Source: an uncultured Candidatus Poseidoniales archaeon
GTDB lineage: Archaea; Thermoplasmatota; Poseidoniia; Poseidoniales; Thalassarchaeaceae
Length of the DNA: 64,000 bases
Direction: 5' to 3'
Assembly (NCBI GenBank): GCA_964645485.1
Contig: CAZXZO010000004.1
Location: 14,740-78,739, forward strand
Part shown: positions 11,336 to 21,649 of the stretch, piece after piece
Numbering within the stretch: the stretch's first letter is position 1
Layout: each line of letters begins with the position of its first letter
Notes under the pieces: model-generated
Seen by the model: only the letters and a program-made list of their open reading frames with translations
What the model was told of the DNA's origin: nothing
Database searches by the model: none
Program-made: the position numbers and the translations under genes

Positions 11336-11926
11336 GTGGCAGTAAAATCATCAACTAAGAAGCGATTAATGGAGCTTGGTGTTAAGGAAGAATTAGCACA
11401 CAAGTTGGCAGACGACGCGAACATGGACACCATCAAGAAAATGAGTGCCCAAGATGTCGCTACCAAATTAAGTTTGAAGATGACTGATACTGAACTTGAA
11501 ACAATCATGGATATCATTCGTGAGCAAGCCGCTTCCAAACGCCGCCGTCCAACTCGCCGAGTGGAAATGAAAGCAGAACTCAAAGCACTAGAAACAAACA
11601 TTCCACTTGGTGAAATGAGATTCAATGTCCTAAATCACGAAATCGTGCCATTGCATGAATTGGTGCCTGAAGAGGAACAGATGGAAGAATTGGCCCCTTG
11701 GGACCTTGTTGGAACCGATATTGATGGCAGCCCACGCCTTCGAATTGAATTACTTCCTAAGATTCTGATTACTGATCCAGCGATTCAGGCAATGAAAGAG
11801 GCAATGGAACAGTCTGATGGTGAGTTACGTGCAGGTTGGTTGAACAACAGAGTAGTAAGAATCACTCGAAGAAGTCCTTCAGCAGGAATTCACGTGGCAT
11901 ACAGGCTAGTAGTAGAGGGTAACTGA
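11336..11926 (+). CDS. rpoH: RNA polymerase subunit Rpo5 (H) with ~95-aa N-terminal extension
   Basis: C-terminal FNVLNHEIVPLHE...LPKILITDP...RRSPSAG..AYRLVV; first gene of the RNAP operon. Confidence 0.95.
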   Translation: MAVKSSTKKRLMELGVKEELAHKLADDANMDTIKKMSAQDVATKLSLKMTDTELETIMDIIREQAASKRRRPTRRVEMKAELKALETNIPLGEMRFNVLNHEIVPLHELVPEEEQMEELAPWDLVGTDIDGSPRLRIELLPKILITDPAIQAMKEAMEQSDGELRAGWLNNRVVRITRRSPSAGIHVAYRLVVEGN

Positions 11927-11933
11927 GGAGGCG

Positions 11934-14900
11934 ATGAATATGAGAGACATTATCAAGACATATTTCAGAGAAAGAAGTTTGGTTAATCACCAGATTGCAT
12001 CATACGATGATTGTTTGCCAAAGGGCGATGGACGAGATTGCCGTTTTGAGCAGATTGTCCGCAACATTCGTATCGGTACTGATGAAATCATTGACGATGA
12101 CGAGGGCGGATTGGTGAAGCTTGACGTTCTAGACAATGAAATTTCTGTAAGAATGAAGAATTTGACACTCGGACCACCTACAATTCGCGAGGCAAATGGT
12201 GCAAACAATGAGGACGCAACTCCCCTTGAGTGCCGTCTTCGTAAGTTGACATATTCTTCTCCGATTTTTATGGACTTCACAATACACCGTGAAGACCACC
12301 CAACACCAATCAAAGAAGATAGAGTCCAAGTTGGAAGCCTACCTGTAATGGTTCGTTCAGAAAGATGTAATCTAAATCCAGGTCACATCGACCAAAATCG
12401 AAATCTCAGCCCAGAGATGAGTGAAGAAGACCGCACTCATTACATGTCTCTTCTAAAGAAGAAGGGAGAAGATCCTTTCGACCCAGGTGGTTACTTCATC
12501 ATCAATGGAACAGAAAGAGTTCTAATTTCGATGGAGGATTTGGCGCCAAACCGAGTTACTGTTGAGATGAGCAAGAGATACAGCAGGGCAACAGAAGTTG
12601 CAAAGATTTTCTCACAAAGAGATGGTGTTCGAAAGCCACTGACTGTTGAAAAGAGAAAAGATGGCATGCTGATGGTGAAAATCAGCAGTGCTGGTGCTCA
12701 AGTTATTCCAGCAGTTCTACTAATGCGTGCTCTTGGAATCAATTCAGATGAGGAAATATTCGCATCGATTGCAGGCCACAAAGACGCTTTCAAGTACGTT
12801 GTTGCAAACATCAATCACGTCCGGGACTTGGATACTAAGGATGCTTATGGTGTGGAAACCAACGAAGAAGCACTTGCATGGTTAGAGAAGAAATTCGCTG
12901 CTGGCCAGCAAAAAGAATATCGTGAACAGCGTGTCAACAATCTAATGGATAAGGAATTACTTCCTCACCTAGGTGACCAACCCGAGCACCGTTTGAAGAA
13001 AGCGGTCTTCCTTGGGCGGATTGTTCGTCAAGTTCTAGAAATGGCAATTACTCAAGGTAAGCCAAATGATAAGGATCACTACGCAAACAAGCGTGTCCGT
13101 CTTGCTGGAGATTTAATCGAAGATTTATTCAGAGTCAGCATGACTCAACTCGCTCGTGACCTCAAGTACCAACTTGAGCGCCACCACAACAGAAAACGTG
13201 AACTAAAAATCAATAGTTGTCTACGACCAGATGTTTTGACATCAAAAATCATGCACGCTCTTGCTACAGGGAACTGGGTTGGTGGTAGAACTGGTGTCAG
13301 CCAATTGCTTGACAGAACAACCTTCATCTCAGCGCTTTCACATATGCGCCGAGTCACAAGCCCACTTGTGAGAAGCCAACCACATTTCGAAGCTAGAGAT
13401 CTTCACCCAACTCAATGGGGTCGTTTATGTCCGAACGAAACCCCTGAGGGACAAAACTGTGGTTTGGTAAAGAATGCAGCACAAATGATTGATGTTTCAG
13501 AAGCAGTATCAGAAGAAGATGTAAAAGAATTGCTAAAAGAGGCTAATGTCATTGAGCCAGAAGATTGGTCAGAAGGTTCCCGAATTCACGTGAATGGAGA
13601 CATTTTCGGTCTACACAAGAATCCTCACCGATTGGTTACTCACTTCAAACGCCGAAGAAGGAATGGAAGAATACGCCCTGAAGTCAGTATTCGCCACGAC
13701 TCAGTGAACCGTGATATATTCATCAATACAGACAAAGGAAGAATTCTGCGTCCGTTATTAGTTCTTGAGAGCGGCAATCTTTCTCTAGCAAAGGAGCACT
13801 TAGTTGCTCTTGCAGACCGTGAGATGAACTTCAAAGACCTCGTAAACGAAGGAGTAGTTGAATGGGTAGATGCAGAAGAAGAAGAAGACCTTCTTGTCGC
13901 TCCACGGCCTTACGACCTACCAACACTTTCTCCAAAACACCAGCGCCCAATCGACCCAGCAAAGGTCACATGGACAAATCTCGGTGAGTTTGACATTTCA
14001 GAAGCAGAGTTAGAGGTGGAAGTCCAATTATCCAATGGTGCATGGGTGACAGAGAAATTCACTCGCCCTCTGAACTATTTCCAAGAAGATATTGAGAAGC
14101 TTCGCCGCAAAGAAAAGAAGAGTGGCAATGTATTAGTTTATACTCACGTTGAAATTGACCCGCAGTTGATTTTGGGTGTTTGTGCGAGTTTAGTCCCATT
14201 CCCCGAACACAACTCGACCCCTCGAGTTACTGGTGGAACTGCAATGGTCAAACAATCTCTTGGCCTACCAGCAAGTAATCACCGCGTAAGACCTGATACT
14301 CGAATGCACATTCTAGACTACCCGCAACGATCTATCGTGCAAACACAATCAATGGAATCAACAAACTTTGTCAATCGCCCTGGTGGACAAAATTATATCG
14401 TTGCAATTCTAAGTCATCACGGCTATAATATGCAGGACGCGGTCATTATGAACCGTGCTTCAGTTGAAAGAGCACTTGGTCGTTCAAGTTTCGTTAGAAC
14501 TTACAATGCTGAAAGGAAGAGATTCCCCGGTGGACAAGAAGAAGAAATCCAAATCCCTGGTGCGGGACAAGATGAAGTTAAAGGTCGTAAAGACAGCAAA
14601 GAGTATGCTCACTTGGAGTACGATGGGTTACCTCATCCAGAAACTATGCTTTCAGGAAAGAGAGATGAGGACCCCGCTGTGTTGGTTGGAAAGACAAGTC
14701 CCCCAAGATTCCTAGAGGAAGGTCATGGTGCTTTCATGATGGGACAATACCGCCAAGAATCCAGTATGCATGTGAGGCATGGAGAAAATGGTCATGTTGA
14801 CCATTTGTTCGTGACTGAGAGCCTCGATGCTGGGCGTTTAGTAAGAATCGTACTACGTCAACACAGAATCCCTGAATTGGGTGATAAATTTTCATCAAGA

Positions 14901-15617
14901 CACGGGCAAAAAGGAGTTGTTGGCCGCTTGGTTGACCAAGAAGATATGCCGTTCACTGTTGATGGAGTCGTGCCTGATTTGATTATCAACCCACACGCTA
15001 TTCCTAGCAGAATGACAGTCGCTCACATTCTAGAAATGATTGGCGGCAAGGTTGGTGCCATGGAAGGTAGATATGTTGATGCTTCAGCATTCTCTGGTGA
15101 AAAAGAGACTGCTCTTCGAGAAGGATTGCTGCGAAACGGATTCCAGCATACAGGAAGAGAACGCATGATCAATGGTGAAACTGGTGATGAGTACGAATCA
15201 AACGTTTTCGTTGGTTGTATCTATTATCAGAAACTGCACCACATGGTTAGCAGTAAAATCCACGCACGAAGTCGTGGAAGAGTGCAAATATTGACTCGTC
15301 AACCCACAGAAGGTCGAGCTCGACAAGGTGGACTACGGTTCGGAGAGATGGAGAGAGACTGTCTGATTGCTCATGGTGCTTCCATGGTTATCAAAGACAG
15401 ACTATTGGATGAATCAGACGGTGTTACCCTGCCAGTTTGTGCCGAAAGCGGTCACATTGCATACTGGGATAATCGCCGCCGCTGTTACGTCAGCCCGGTG
15501 TATGGTGAAAGTGCAGAAGTTCATCTTGTAGAAACCTCATATGCATTCAAGTTATTACTAGACGAAATGAAATCACTTGGAGTTGCCATGCGACTTCAAT
15601 TGGAGGACAGGAGGTGA
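11934..15617 (+). CDS. rpoB: RNA polymerase subunit Rpo2 (B), unsplit
   Basis: GYFIINGTERV, ETPEGQNCGLVKN, GDKFSSRHGQKG, GGLRFGEMERD. Confidence 0.99.
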   Translation: MNMRDIIKTYFRERSLVNHQIASYDDCLPKGDGRDCRFEQIVRNIRIGTDEIIDDDEGGLVKLDVLDNEISVRMKNLTLGPPTIREANGANNEDATPLECRLRKLTYSSPIFMDFTIHREDHPTPIKEDRVQVGSLPVMVRSERCNLNPGHIDQNRNLSPEMSEEDRTHYMSLLKKKGEDPFDPGGYFIINGTERVLISMEDLAPNRVTVEMSKRYSRATEVAKIFSQRDGVRKPLTVEKRKDGMLMVKISSAGAQVIPAVLLMRALGINSDEEIFASIAGHKDAFKYVVANINHVRDLDTKDAYGVETNEEALAWLEKKFAAGQQKEYREQRVNNLMDKELLPHLGDQPEHRLKKAVFLGRIVRQVLEMAITQGKPNDKDHYANKRVRLAGDLIEDLFRVSMTQLARDLKYQLERHHNRKRELKINSCLRPDVLTSKIMHALATGNWVGGRTGVSQLLDRTTFISALSHMRRVTSPLVRSQPHFEARDLHPTQWGRLCPNETPEGQNCGLVKNAAQMIDVSEAVSEEDVKELLKEANVIEPEDWSEGSRIHVNGDIFGLHKNPHRLVTHFKRRRRNGRIRPEVSIRHDSVNRDIFINTDKGRILRPLLVLESGNLSLAKEHLVALADREMNFKDLVNEGVVEWVDAEEEEDLLVAPRPYDLPTLSPKHQRPIDPAKVTWTNLGEFDISEAELEVEVQLSNGAWVTEKFTRPLNYFQEDIEKLRRKEKKSGNVLVYTHVEIDPQLILGVCASLVPFPEHNSTPRVTGGTAMVKQSLGLPASNHRVRPDTRMHILDYPQRSIVQTQSMESTNFVNRPGGQNYIVAILSHHGYNMQDAVIMNRASVERALGRSSFVRTYNAERKRFPGGQEEEIQIPGAGQDEVKGRKDSKEYAHLEYDGLPHPETMLSGKRDEDPAVLVGKTSPPRFLEEGHGAFMMGQYRQESSMHVRHGENGHVDHLFVTESLDAGRLVRIVLRQHRIPELGDKFSSRHGQKGVVGRLVDQEDMPFTVDGVVPDLIINPHAIPSRMTVAHILEMIGGKVGAMEGRYVDASAFSGEKETALREGLLRNGFQHTGRERMINGETGDEYESNVFVGCIYYQKLHHMVSSKIHARSRGRVQILTRQPTEGRARQGGLRFGEMERDCLIAHGASMVIKDRLLDESDGVTLPVCAESGHIAYWDNRRRCYVSPVYGESAEVHLVETSYAFKLLLDEMKSLGVAMRLQLEDRR

Positions 15618-15622
15618 TTTGA

Positions 15623-18600
15623 ATGGCTAAAAAACTAGATGCATCAAAGATTCCAAAGCGTATTGCTTCAATCAAATTTGGATTGATGGCACCAAACGAG
15701 ATCCGCCGACTGAGCGCAGTAGAAGTCAAAACTGCTGATACTTACAAGGACGATGGACACGCATTCCACCAAGGTCTAATGGACCCTCAGATGGGTGTAA
15801 TTGAACAAGGAATTCGTTGTGAAACTTGCGGAAATAAGCATGATGAGTGTCCAAGTCACTTCGGTCACATACAACTCGAATTACCTGTTATCCACTGTGG
15901 TTTCACACCACTCATCAAGACTGCACTGAAGACCACTTGCAACAAATGTTACCGTGTTCTTCTGCACGAAACCCCAGGTACGCACCCAGTTGATAGTGAA
16001 CTTTCAGAGCAAGATTTCTATCGTAACAGAGTATTGGATATCATTCAGAAGCACGGTCCAGGTTCACCTGAACTAAAGAAAATCATCAAGGATATTGAGA
16101 AAACTTGCAGTGGTAAAAAGCGAATGGTTTGCATGCACTGTGGAAGCGAACAAGGAAAAATCTTACTTGAGAAGCCGACAACTTTCAAAGAAAAGAAAGA
16201 GGACAAGAGCGAGCACAAATTGAACGCTAGAGATATTCGTGAATGGCTTGAAGGAATTCCTGCTGATGACCTAATTTACATAGGGATGGATAAGGAATCA
16301 AACCGTCCAGAATGGGTAGTCATGAGAGTGCTTCCAGTACCGCCGATTACCGTACGCCCTTCTATCACACTAGAAAGTGGTGACCGTTCAGAGGACGACC
16401 TAACCCACAAGCTTGTGGATGTATTGAGAATCAATCAACGATTACGAGAAAATCGTGACCAAGGTGCTCCACAACTGATTGTAGAAGACCTTTGGGAACT
16501 TCTCCAATATCACATAACTACTTACTTTGACAACCAAACAAGTGGTGTTCCACCGGCTCGTCACCGTAGTGGTAGGCCACTCAAGACGCTAACACAGCGA
16601 TTGAAAGGTAAGGAAGGAAGATTCCGTAGTAACTTGTCTGGAAAGCGTGTGAACTTCTGTGCGCGTTCAGTTATTTCACCAGATCCATTCTTAGGAATAA
16701 ACGAAGTTGGTGTACCCGAGCAATCTGCGAAAGATTTGACCGTGCCAATCCGTGTTACCAAGCGTAACCGTGAACAACTTCGTGAGATGATTTTGCGCGG
16801 ACCTGATAATCACCCCGGTGTGAATTATATTGTTCGCGGCGACACTCACCGTGTTCGAATTACTGACAGAACCAAGTTCATTTGGTCTGGTTTCCGCTGT
16901 ATGAATCCTGTTTGTGATGGGGGAGACCCTGAACGTGATGAGCCTTACGAGGGAATGGCTCCAGAACTTAACGAAGTTCTCAGAGCACCAAATTTCTTGC
17001 CTGGTTTAGTTATCAAGAAGGAAAATCGTCGTACTATTGAAGGTTTACAAGAGAACTGGGTTGCTGATTTAGAGGCTACAATTGCTAACTTACGTGGCGA
17101 AGATGAGAATGGAAATCAACTTCCTGATGATGACCCACGCACAATCATCCACAACCGCTGGAGATGGGAGCAAGAACAAGCTGAAGACGCTCCATACCCT
17201 GAACATCTGGATGTCATTTGCCCACACTGTGGTTCACCATGGGATGAGGAAGATGAAGAAAGAACACAGGTAGAGGACAGACTTGCAACTGTTGATTTGG
17301 ATGGAAGCCCCAAGCCAGGTATGGTAGTTGAGCGCCATTTGATTGACGGCGATGTTGTAATTTTCAACCGACAACCTTCACTTCACCGTATGTCAATGAT
17401 GGTTCACGAAGTAAGAGTGATGGAGGGTAAAACATTCCGTTTCAATCTGTCAGTTTGTACTCCTTACAACGCTGATTTCGATGGTGATGAGATGAATCTC
17501 CACATTATTCAGTCAGAGGAGGCTCGTGCTGAAGCGAAGGTTTTGATGCGTGTGCAAGAGAATATTCTGAGCCCACGTTACGGTGGCGCAGTTATTGGAG
17601 GTATTCACGACCACATTTCAGGTGCATATTTGCTGACCAATAGCGACCGTATTGTTGCCAAAGGACAAGCCTTAGAAATCCTAAGTAAAATCAATTGGAC
17701 TGGTACTTTGCCAAAGGAAGTCAAAGGCGAAAACGGCGAAATTGGTTACAATGGACGTGAACTTCTGAATTTGATTATACCTTCAGGCATTAATCTAAGT
17801 TACAAGAGTCGAAGTAACGACCAAGTTGAAGTCATTGATGGTGAAATTCTATCAGGTACTATCGACAAGACAGGTATTGGTGCAGAGGATGGAAAACTGC
17901 TTGATGCGGTACTCCAAGTTCATGGGAGCACAAGGGGAGCACAATTCCTCAACGAGTTAACTCAACTTACAATTGGAATATGTACTGCTCTAGGATTTAC
18001 TACTGGAATTGATGATGAAGACCTTCCACCAGCAGCACGCTCAGAAATCACTGAGATAAACTCAACAGCTATTGCAGATGTCGATGCAAAACTCGAACAA
18101 TATGGTAAGAGCGGGCGTGGTTACGAAGCAAGACCGGGGCGCACTCCATTAGAAACCCTTGAAGAAGATATCATGCAGATTCTGGACCAGTCGAGATCAA
18201 GAACTGGTGAAATTGCAAAGGAACATCTAGCGAGTGATAACGCTGCAGTAATGATGGCTGTATCGGGCGCTCGTGGTTCTATGGACAATCTTTCAATGAT
18301 GGCCGGTTCAATTGGACAGACTCGAGTTCGTGGTCAGCGTCTTGAGAGAGGTTACAAGGATAGAGTACTTTCACACTTTGAGAGAAATGCGAAGGGTGCA
18401 CAGGAGAAAGGATTTGTTCAATCTTCATTCAAGAGAGGACTAGAACCAACAGAGTTCTTTATGCTCTCAGTATCTGGAAGAGAATCTCTGGTCGATACTG
18501 CTGTTCGTACCAGCAAATCAGGATATATGCAGCGCCGTCTCATCAATGCGATGGACGATTTGAAGGTTCACGGAGATTCTCATCACTCAGTTAGAAACAC

Positions 18601-18721
18601 TGCGGACAGAATTATCCAATTCAGTTATGGTGAGGATGGAACTGACCCAACAAGAAGTATCAGAGGTTCTGCAATTAATATCAGAGATGTTCTTGATAAC
18701 GCACTAGGAGGTGAGAAGTAA
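15623..18721 (+). CDS. rpoA1: RNA polymerase subunit Rpo1N (A')
   Basis: CETC...[47 protein letters not shown]. Confidence 0.99.
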
Positions 18722-20256
18722 TGGTAGTTAAGTCAGCAACCAAGAAGAAACTCATGGATATGGGTATTCCCGAAGATTATGCACATAATCTCGCTGATGG
18801 CCGCAAATGGGATGATGTCAAGATATTATCACAAGGTGAAATTGCAAAGATTTGTGGACTTTCATCAGATGAAGCAGATAAATTATCTCAAGTAATTCAA
18901 AAGTTCGGAAAGCGAACTCGTTCTACTGCAGCATCAACAACTAGCACCACTGTCGTCCGTCGCCGTGCAGCAAAGAGGAGAGTCAAAGTTCAGCAAGAAC
19001 TTGAACAATTTGACCCCGAATTGAAAATGGAACAACTGAATAGAGGCCTAAACGCTACAGATATTTTTACCGCTTTGGTTAATGCTGCGGAAAAGGAAGG
19101 TTCAACACTTTCCAAACTTGTCTTGAGTAATTTAGCCGACCAAATTGAGAAGCGGGGGATGAACAAATTGACAGCCAAGCAAGCATCATCAGTTATACAA
19201 GAAGCAGACCAAGCTTCTGTGGCTACTGGAGTAGATCCGTTTGAAGCAGTTGGAATTGTTACTGCACAATCAATCGGAGAACCAGGAACCCAGATGACTA
19301 TGCGTACTTTCCACTATGCGGGTGTAGCAACTGTAAACGTCACTCAAGGTTTGCCAAGAATCATTGAGATTGTTGATGCTCGAAAGAAATCATCGACTCC
19401 AACAATGAGAATTCACTTGGATGATGAATTAAAGCATGATGAAAAGAAAGTCAGAAATCTTGCAGCTTCTCTTGAAATAACTGATGCTAAAGACATTGCA
19501 GTCATTGAGACTGATGTCACACAGCGCAGAATTACTTTGAAATTAATTCCATCAAACATGAAACAGAAAGGTGTTAAACCCGTTGAAGTCAAAGAGATAC
19601 TTTCTCGCAGACTTCGTCTTTTCATCGAAGCAGATAACGATGTTCGACCAAAGTTGTTGACCATCATTCCAGGTCGAAAGAAAGAAAGCGACGATGTCAC
19701 TCCGAATTACACTGAATTGTTGGCATTAGAAGAAAAAGTGAAGGAATTACGCTTGAAAGGTGTAACCGATATTCAGCGAGCAAACACGCAGAAAGATGCA
19801 GGAACTGGAGAATATTATATCGCTACCATTGGAAGTAATCTAGCAGCAGTAAGTGAATTTGAAGGAATTGACCGTGCTCGAACATACACTAACAACATCA
19901 CCGAGATCCACCAATATCTAGGGGTTGAGGCGGCACGACAAGCGATAATTAATGAATTAATTTTGACTCTTCAAGATGCACGTTTGGATGTTGATGTAAG
20001 ACATTTGATTACTGTAGCCGATGTTATGACAAGTGAAGGCGAAGTTCGTGCAATCGGACGCCACGGTGTTTCAGGAAACAAACACAGTATCTTGGCTCGT
20101 GCTGCTTTCGAAGTAACAGTGAACCATCTTCTAAGAGCTGGAATCATTGGCGAACAAGACGAATTAGCTGGAGTTGCTGAGAACATTATTGTTGGACAAC
20201 CTGTTGCCCTTGGCACTGGTAGTGTTGAACTGTTCTACATCCCAGATGAGGAATAA
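18721..20256 (+). CDS. rpoA2: RNA polymerase subunit Rpo1C (A'') with long N-terminal extension
   Basis: [45 protein letters not shown]; 511 aa. Confidence 0.99.
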
Positions 20257-20303
20257 TTAAAATCCCACCATGAGAAACAAATGTGGAGTATGGAGGAATA
20301 AAA

Positions 20304-20603
20304 ATGGATATAGTAAAACAATTAAAAACAGCGATTAAGAATGGTACCTTGCTATTTGGTCAAAACCAAACTGCAACGGCTTGTGCACATGGGGAAGCGA
20401 AATTAGTTATTTTAGCGGCAAATTGCCCCCAAGATTATGTGGAAGAATTACACAGTAGTCATCCAGATATACCCATTCACAGGGTATCGATGGTCAATAG
20501 AGAATTAGGCGCTGCTTGCGCAAAGCCATTCCATGTCAGTTCTATTTGTGTGGTTGATGCAGGTAGCAGCGATTTACTCTCATTGAGAAGTAACCTTGAA
20601 TGA
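20304..20603 (+). CDS. rpl30e: 50S ribosomal protein L30e
   Basis: GTLLFGQNQT, KLVILAANCP, ELGAACAKPF.VS; GGAGG Shine-Dalgarno before ATG 20304. Confidence 0.95.
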   Translation: MDIVKQLKTAIKNGTLLFGQNQTATACAHGEAKLVILAANCPQDYVEELHSSHPDIPIHRVSMVNRELGAACAKPFHVSSICVVDAGSSDLLSLRSNLE

Positions 20604-20692: not shown

Positions 20693-21649
20693 ATGACAGT
20701 TTCTTTACCGTCAGTTCTCAAAGAACTTGGAATTGAAGTAAAGTCTGTATCCATCATTTCTAGAACTCCGGGAATTAATTGTTTGGGGATTATTGAATCC
20801 ATAACAAATTCTGATGCTGGTTGCCCTGTGCAAACAGGAACCCACATCTGGCATGCTCAACCCGGTTGGGCACCGATTGACAGAATGGAATTGGAGCGCT
20901 GGATAGTGGATGCGCCTGATGGTTCACATTGGCTCGTTTCAGAACGGAGATTAATTGATTTAGACCGAACAACGGTTTCTGAACGAATTAACTTGGTACT
21001 TTGGGGATGCGAGGAACTTTCAAATTGGCTTGGTAAATCGATCCTCAATGGCAAATTAAACTTACAATTTGATGAAACACCGGCTTCTCCCACAATAGGT
21101 GGAATTACCAAGAGAGCAGTCAAATCGGCTCCTAAAATTCCTAAAGCACAGGCAATCAAACCAATTATCAAACTGACAGAATGGCTTTCACAACGTGGAT
21201 ATGAGCGATTGGAAGTACGGCCAGTGTTACTTGAAGGAAAAAGTTGGCAAATTGATGGCCATCTACTTGGCCCAGAAGGAACTAAGGAAAGGCAGCGCTG
21301 GTCGTTAATCGAAGACCCTTTTTCAGGCCAACTAACAAGAATGGGTGATTCCGAACCCCTACCGTTTGTACCCCAACTCGAGAAGATCTCTCCTAGGTCA
21401 TGGAAAACTATGGAGATGGTGCGCTCTGAACTGCCCTCAGTGTGTGAGGAACGGAGACATTGGAGAGTTAGTCAAACTTCGGATGGGGGGAATGTTCACG
21501 GGAGTATCCTGCATTGGTGGCGCATTGAGGAGAAGGTTGCCCAAATGACTTCTTCACCTATCTTGATACCCGGATGGCAAGTTGATTTCCCAAGTAATGG
21601 GTGGATGATTGTACACGGTTTAAGTGGTGAAATACTAAATCTTCCTTGA
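20693..21649 (+). CDS. hypothetical protein (Trp-rich, two domains)
   Basis: 318-aa ORF filling the gap after rpl30e; no motif recognised. Confidence 0.75.
   Translation: MTVSLPSVLKELGIEVKSVSIISRTPGINCLGIIESITNSDAGCPVQTGTHIWHAQPGWAPIDRMELERWIVDAPDGSHWLVSERRLIDLDRTTVSERINLVLWGCEELSNWLGKSILNGKLNLQFDETPASPTIGGITKRAVKSAPKIPKAQAIKPIIKLTEWLSQRGYERLEVRPVLLEGKSWQIDGHLLGPEGTKERQRWSLIEDPFSGQLTRMGDSEPLPFVPQLEKISPRSWKTMEMVRSELPSVCEERRHWRVSQTSDGGNVHGSILHWWRIEEKVAQMTSSPILIPGWQVDFPSNGWMIVHGLSGEILNLP

Follow-up and report, generated by a model that had tools for sequence, protein, structure and literature searches.

The window analyzed here, a 64,000-nucleotide stretch of contig CAZXZO010000004.1 from an uncultured Candidatus Poseidoniales archaeon, encompasses an RNA polymerase operon with the gene order rpoH (11336-11926), rpo2 (11934-15617), rpo1N (15623-18721) and rpo1C (18721-20256), followed by a short open reading frame (ORF; 20283-20603) that, judging by its expected position, we take to be rpl30e. 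The rpo1N product contains Pfam Rpb1 domains 1 to 5 in order (E-values from 8e-97 to 8e-20) as well as the catalytic [10 protein letters not shown] loop, the features by which Rpo1N is recognized. It departs from the usual Rpo1N in the dock, where the loop running from HPG to VERH, typically ~34 amino acids (aa), extends over 172 aa, and the match to Pfam Rpb1 domain 2 is split into two stretches. This long dock loop is the finding described here, and the orthology of the protein is unaffected by it. The relevant features are as follows.

15623-18721, + strand: gene for Rpo1N (RpoA'), host of the insertion; 1032 aa, Pfam Rpb1 domains 1-5
16811-16876, + strand: N-terminal arm of the dock hairpin in its ancestral form, HPGVNYIVR...RVRITDRTK, aa 397-418, which aligns with other Thermoplasmatota
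16874-17311, + strand: order-specific dock insertion, aa 418-563, 146 aa (net gain ~138), lacking in MGIII and other Thermoplasmatota
16898-16915, + strand: first Cys pair, C426-x4-C431 (CMNPVC, aa 426-431), within a G-F/Y-R-C-x-N-P-x-C motif
16985-17005, + strand: APNFLPG motif, aa 455-461, where an alignment of 54 sequences (A2) shows no change at A, P, N, P and G and almost none at F and L
17087-17104, + strand: NLRGED motif, aa 489-494, with N, L and G invariant and E and D at least 90% conserved in A2
17219-17239, + strand: second Cys pair in a classic zinc knuckle, CPHCGSP, aa 533-539
17270-17320, + strand: return segment VEDRL..D..G.PKPG, aa 550-566, by which the chain rejoins the dock strand VVERH; E, D, R, L, D, P and G do not vary in A2
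17468-17497, + strand: catalytic loop; the active site, which lies downstream of the insertion, is intact

In the window Rpo1N, 160 aa separate the blocks HPGVNYIVR (aa 397-405) and [12 protein letters not shown] (aa 566-577). In an alignment with 20 Thermoplasmatota from other families, the distance from HPG to VERH is 172 aa in the window protein versus 34-38 aa in the others (34 residues in most of them and 37-38 in three), and in the Rpo1N of P. furiosus (8cro), 9 residues separate the flanking blocks, between which 147 residues lie in the window protein, so that the net gain amounts to ~138 aa. A similarly short dock loop is found in every solved chain of the alignment, be it from an archaeal polymerase, Pol II or Pol III. 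The N-terminal arm of the dock aligns with P. furiosus Rpo1N up to residue 399, the alignment of human Pol I and of a few outgroups reaches part of the way into the return segment, and the insertion itself occupies the distal loop of the dock hairpin. These observations bear out the initial annotation, which had recorded an abnormally long stretch at this point in the dock, with an insertion of ~135 aa at 16873-17310 that is bracketed by CxxxxC and CxxC and has an acidic core; the boundaries found here (nt 16874-17311) agree with those given there, the second pair is C533-x2-C536 (CPHC, aa 533-536, nt 17219-17230), and the insertion contains 35 Asp and Glu residues versus 14 Lys and Arg. The GC content of the insertion is 46%, compared with 44% for the whole rpo1N gene, and base composition thus gives no sign of recent foreign DNA as its source.

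Using a 269-aa query that runs through the insertion, we surveyed genomes of Poseidoniales (Marine Group II, MGII) and found an unbroken full-length match, with 64-100% identity, in all three Poseidoniales families (f1, f2 and f3) and in every genome with an intact gene: 40 of the 41 genomes in one search and all 75 in another (25/25 in f1, 50/50 in f3). In the sister group MGIII (families f4 and f5 of the same class, with small genomes of ~1 Mb), only the two flanks matched, with ~8 residues between them, and ~160 further Thermoplasmatota genomes likewise gave a split match with ~8 aa between the flanks. A pattern scan across one genome per GTDB species yielded 414 loci encoding the insertion, and the 80 of these that carry titles were all labeled as Poseidoniales, MGII or generic archaeal, with the single exception of a “Pedosphaera sp.” metagenome-assembled genome (MAG; locus L120, NYYT01000042.1). 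The Rpo1N encoded in this exceptional record, insertion included, is typical of Poseidoniales, and the record is probably mislabeled or derived from a contaminated bin. Among the orthologues examined, no intermediate or shortened form of the insertion was seen, the greatest length change being an 8-aa deletion combined with a 4-aa insertion in one family. The insertion was absent from every other archaeon, eukaryote and solved polymerase examined, the comparison beyond the phylum covering solved structures, and it is a synapomorphy of Poseidoniales. A separate observation concerns family f16 of Thermoplasmatota, in which additional Rpo1N sequence is located outside the dock: in locus L066 of genome G152, the Rpo1N frame is ~1150 aa long although the dock loop is normal (38 aa).

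The four cysteines (C426, C431, C533 and C536) are retained in all 111 distinct orthologues, which represent 140 loci, with 96-105 aa between the two pairs and with CPHC unchanged throughout. The initial annotation had singled out the lack of conservation of these cysteines in orthologues as the outcome that would count against it, and given that both pairs are invariant, this objection falls. Conservation extends well beyond the cysteines: alignment A2 contains 36 invariant columns, including those of G-F-R-C-x-N-x-x-C, A-P-N-x-x-P-G, T-x-x-N-L-x-G, W513, C-P-H-C-x-S and E-D-R-L. In within-genus pairs with unsaturated dS, the median dN/dS is 0.05 for the insertion versus 0.017 for the flanks, and the respective dN values are 0.043 and 0.012, which corresponds to a roughly threefold higher rate of change in the insertion. 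The insertion is under strong purifying selection, which is to be expected for any segment inside an essential enzyme and does not prove a specific function. Its net charge is negative in all 54 aligned orthologues, ranging from -9 to -21 with a median of -17, compared with a net charge of 0 for the other 886 residues of the window Rpo1N.

AlphaFold2 modeling of aa 339-645 with an alignment of 73 sequences (hereafter, the context model) assigned pLDDT values of 78-93 to the insertion, with a mean of ~87. In this model, the insertion is predicted to start with a short helix followed by a strand and the first Cys pair, to continue with another helix, a long beta-hairpin and a pair of helices, and to end with the second Cys pair, after which short strands lead back to the dock strand; the NLRGED motif falls inside a predicted helix located after the predicted hairpin. 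When the insertion was modeled by itself (aa 408-574, 54 sequences), the mean pLDDT was 56.6, with the first 51 residues, including the first Cys pair, below 50, and with block means of 48-61 around and after the second Cys pair. Hence, a folded alpha/beta module is predicted, with confidence only when the polymerase core is included. Because a confident prediction needs the core, the domain probably packs rigidly on it rather than being tethered to it, and the comparison of the two models, which differ in their alignments, hints that the base of the domain packs on the dock and the core; in view of the poor insertion-only model, the confidence of the context model may stem, in part, from its deeper alignment.

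The two Cys pairs at the ends of the insertion most likely bind one zinc ion and thus tie these ends together, as suggested by the sequence pattern, in which four conserved cysteines form two pairs, one of them a CPxCG knuckle, throughout the 111 orthologues. Zinc-ribbon Pfam profiles gave no match above the cut-offs: the best were Zn_ribbon_PaaD (E = 4e-4) and Zn_ribbon_3 (E = 0.008), the matches in the window protein scored 7-13 bits versus cut-offs of 25-27, and the sub-threshold matches at E ≤ 10 among the 54 members, to many zinc-ribbon families, were all confined to the CPHCG knuckle. The profile of the TFB/TFIIB B-ribbon itself (PF08271) matched the insertion in 6 of the 54 members, with a best E-value of 0.022, and fell short of the 29-bit threshold.

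We searched for relatives of the insertion outside Rpo1N. In a phmmer search of 1.84 billion representative proteins, the insertion on its own had 21 matches, of which 20 were to Rpo1N, to proteins of Rpo1N length or to short proteins (the six short ones inspected are error-laden Rpo1N fragments of the Poseidoniales lineage); the remaining match, to a 2357-aa protein, was weak (E = 1.5e-4). The ESM Atlas yielded Rpb1 fragments only, all below 0.9. In fold searches with the low-confidence insertion-only model, the best VIA-wide Z-score was 2.0, there was no Foldseek match at E ≤ 0.001, and neither search matched a BEAN or sandwich-barrel hybrid fold. The context model, in turn, matched polymerase cores only, with human and S. 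pombe Pol I at the top (Z of 10.8 and 9.6, 152 residues aligned, versus 141-145 for the archaeal, Pol II and Pol III chains). Overall, no detectable sequence or fold relative of the insertion was found, and a search of the accessible literature library turned up no published description of this insertion. Duplication of the zinc module in the clamp head of Rpo1N was rejected as the origin because the hhalign match covers only 8 columns, those of the CPHCG knuckle, with no extended similarity, and so was a substitute for a lost zinc-ribbon subunit, given that Rpo12 is present in the window genome (27.9 bits).

The length of the insertion, ~140 aa, falls within the size range of mini-inteins, and a mini-intein, some other excised element or an assembly artefact would each account for its presence in the gene. 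This explanation is largely refuted and we consider it extremely improbable. The initial annotation had already noted the lack of intein motifs, and in agreement with this, no Hint or intein Pfam family matched any of the 54 members at E ≤ 10. The junctions (...DRTK/FIW... and ...[11 protein letters not shown]) offer no N-terminal nucleophile, and at the C-terminal junction, there is no His-Asn followed by Cys, Ser or Thr; furthermore, the predicted fold is mixed alpha/beta with four helices, not all-beta. Finally, the reading frame is continuous in 140 independent loci, drawn from separate MAGs and from one record that seems not to be a MAG, which excludes an assembly artefact.

The closest known parallel by position is in Pol I, where two additions to the dock loop, helix alpha12a (specific to Pol I) and residues 580-587 inserted in S. 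pombe, form a dimer interface (PMC7859239); in the alignment, the latter lie 6-13 residues before the residue that corresponds to the V of VERH. Given that these additions form a protein-protein interface, the dock loop evidently tolerates additions and is used for contacts. The Poseidoniales insertion resembles the additions in A190/RPA1 in being lineage-specific and located in the distal loop of the dock, immediately ahead of the VERH strand, whereas the Pol I elements comprise only 8-20 aa, have neither a Cys4 site nor the character of an acidic module, and are unrelated to it in sequence. Lineage-specific insertion domains are also known in the bacterial beta and beta' subunits (BEAN and HABAS/SBHM), and the published account of these describes no insertions in the dock (PMC11515920). 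Like the bacterial domains, the insertion described here is a putative folded domain confined to one lineage and perched on the universal polymerase domain into one of whose surface loops it is inserted; unlike them, it resides in an archaeal enzyme and in a different subunit region, and is predicted to be an alpha/beta module with a Cys4 clasp rather than a beta-sandwich. The two Cys pairs with a CPxCG-type knuckle are reminiscent of the C4 ribbons of the TFB B-ribbon, Rpo12 and the Rpo1N clamp head, but in these compact ribbons, the pairs are ~15-25 residues apart, whereas in the insertion they are ~100 residues apart and enclose the whole module.

Few outer regions of the enzyme are as conserved as the dock (PMC2680338), and it is established that the TFB zinc ribbon binds there, as the initial annotation had stated, and that this contact recruits the polymerase (PMC7289017, PMC10881513). 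That annotation had also called for a search for compensating changes in the TFB paralogues, and here no obvious change was found. The window genome encodes two TFB paralogues (G000:C8:36468-37337 and G000:C27:22104-22970), both with a C4 ribbon (37-64 bits) and two cyclin repeats; in general, two TFBs, each with a canonical C4 ribbon, are encoded per MGII genome, versus three in MGIII, and the ribbons of the two groups differ at a few positions, for example, R-D-E-T in MGII versus R-D-Y in MGIII. Loss of the TFB ribbon and TFB expansion thus find no support as explanations of the insertion. A further Zn_Ribbon_TF match was observed on contig 12 of the window genome, in a 354-aa frame. Canonical TFE-alpha (PF02002, TIGR00373) was undetected in the 17 MGII genomes and the one MGIII genome sampled with TIGR00373, and strong matches (E-values from 1e-23 to 1e-40) were found in only 10 of the 81 Thermoplasmatota genomes, so TFE in much of this phylum is either very divergent or absent. 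Because TFE-alpha is equally undetected in MGIII, which lack the insertion, and in most Thermoplasmatota, its absence is not correlated with the insertion, and compensation for a missing TFE was rejected as an explanation.

Besides the dock domain, this polymerase has other order-specific additions. In RpoH, which is 196 aa long, there is an N-terminal module of ~95 aa, and the N-terminus of the 511-aa Rpo1C is a diverged copy of this module (39% identity over aa 1-73, E = 1.5e-7); both the module and its copy are present in all 24 MGII genomes sampled, whereas the RpoH frames of MGIII, at 81-121 aa, lack the module and match the C-terminal half only. In Rpo2, the Pfam domain Rpb2_5, which has 66 profile positions, spans 111 residues (approximately aa 633-743), implying a putative insertion of ~45-65 aa in this region. 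Further downstream, behind the presumed rpl30e, there is a 318-aa ORF (20693-21649) without a Pfam match. In archaeal RNA polymerase operons, nusA often occupies the corresponding place, and the product of this ORF could be a lineage-specific transcription-linked protein.

We propose that the insertion arose once, at the stem of Poseidoniales, in the distal loop of the dock hairpin, and would now be a permanent folded surface domain of the RNA polymerase of this order. A zinc-clasped base next to the dock would tie together the N- and C-terminal ends of the insertion, and from this base, an acidic alpha/beta module would project, exposing the invariant surface motifs APNFLPG and NLRGED and the invariant W513. 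Direct binding of DNA or RNA is unlikely because the domain is strongly acidic; with the dock being the site of TFB-ribbon binding near the RNA exit, and given the acidity of the domain, a platform for protein-protein interactions seems most likely. Taken jointly, a zinc-clasped surface domain on the dock and a protein-interaction platform at the face of the enzyme where the TFB ribbon binds and the RNA exits make up a reading that we consider reasonably probable. The platform might act at initiation, by modifying or extending the docking surface of the TFB ribbon or by recruiting a lineage-specific partner, but such a specific initiation role is a tentative suggestion, which we put forward with distinctly less confidence. 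Of the initial interpretation, the structural side is supported, and its proposals for function, namely altered TFB recruitment, altered RNA exit or coupling to aCPSF1 or ribosomes, stay at the level of suggestions.

The dock also borders the RNA exit channel, and the domain might instead act after initiation, guiding or shielding the nascent transcript electrostatically or binding a factor of elongation, termination or coupling, for which the Spt5 KOW domain, aCPSF1/FttA and a component of the ribosome are candidates. The conserved strong negative charge could repel RNA or bind a basic factor, and the other order-specific modules on the same polymerase suggest a wider rewiring of factor contacts; however, the evidence does not separate such a function from a role in initiation and points to no partner, and we regard this alternative, along with the candidates named for it, as unlikely, if worth keeping in mind. 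A more skeptical interpretation is that the insertion has no dedicated function and persists because its misfolding would harm an essential enzyme, in a case of constructive neutral evolution. The failure of phmmer and the ESM Atlas to reveal a homologue or donor, the lack of a correlated change in TFB number and ribbon type, and the roughly threefold faster evolution of the insertion compared with the flanks would all fit this scenario. It is harder to reconcile with the invariance of motifs that are distant from the Cys pairs (APNFLPG, NLRGED and W513), with the negative charge maintained throughout an old and diverse order, and with the fact that no member has lost the insertion or shortened it by more than ~8 aa, and we accordingly deem it improbable. 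The Pol I precedent, in which additions to the same loop form a dimer interface, together with the position of the Pol I chains at the top of the context-model matches, brings to mind self-association of the polymerase or an inactive storage state, and the acidity of the domain would suit either this or mimicry of a nucleic acid. The Pol I elements are, however, far smaller and not homologous, and the alignment with Pol I gains only ~10 residues over that with archaeal chains, so we consider these possibilities highly unlikely. We return to the preferred reading, a zinc-clasped surface domain serving as a protein-interaction platform.

Although insertion domains in bacterial beta and beta' and small ones in the Pol I dock are known, a large, probably Cys4-clasped acidic domain in an archaeal dock appears to be new. 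A conserved 138-aa domain on the dock is unusual, and this one is fixed in an order of very abundant, uncultured ocean archaea, a finding that would surprise specialists in archaeal transcription. In practical terms, the insertion is a clean sequence marker that splits Poseidoniales from MGIII, and a natural experiment on how far the interface between TFB and the dock can be remodeled. Even with the host organisms uncultured, the domain is tractable for recombinant work: it can be expressed separately, tested for zinc, and grafted into or removed from archaeal polymerases. Together with the other modules, it suggests that the transcription machinery of Poseidoniales differs from that of the model archaea from which the mechanism is inferred. 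A bolder proposal, which we consider quite improbable, is that the domain forms an integral module for initiation or regulation, either changing the way in which TFB brings in the polymerase or keeping the enzyme auto-inhibited. If this were the case, an order in which canonical TFE-alpha was not detected would possess, with the RpoH, Rpo1C and Rpo2 modules, a structurally distinct archaeal RNA polymerase, and this in one of the most abundant groups of archaea in the surface ocean.
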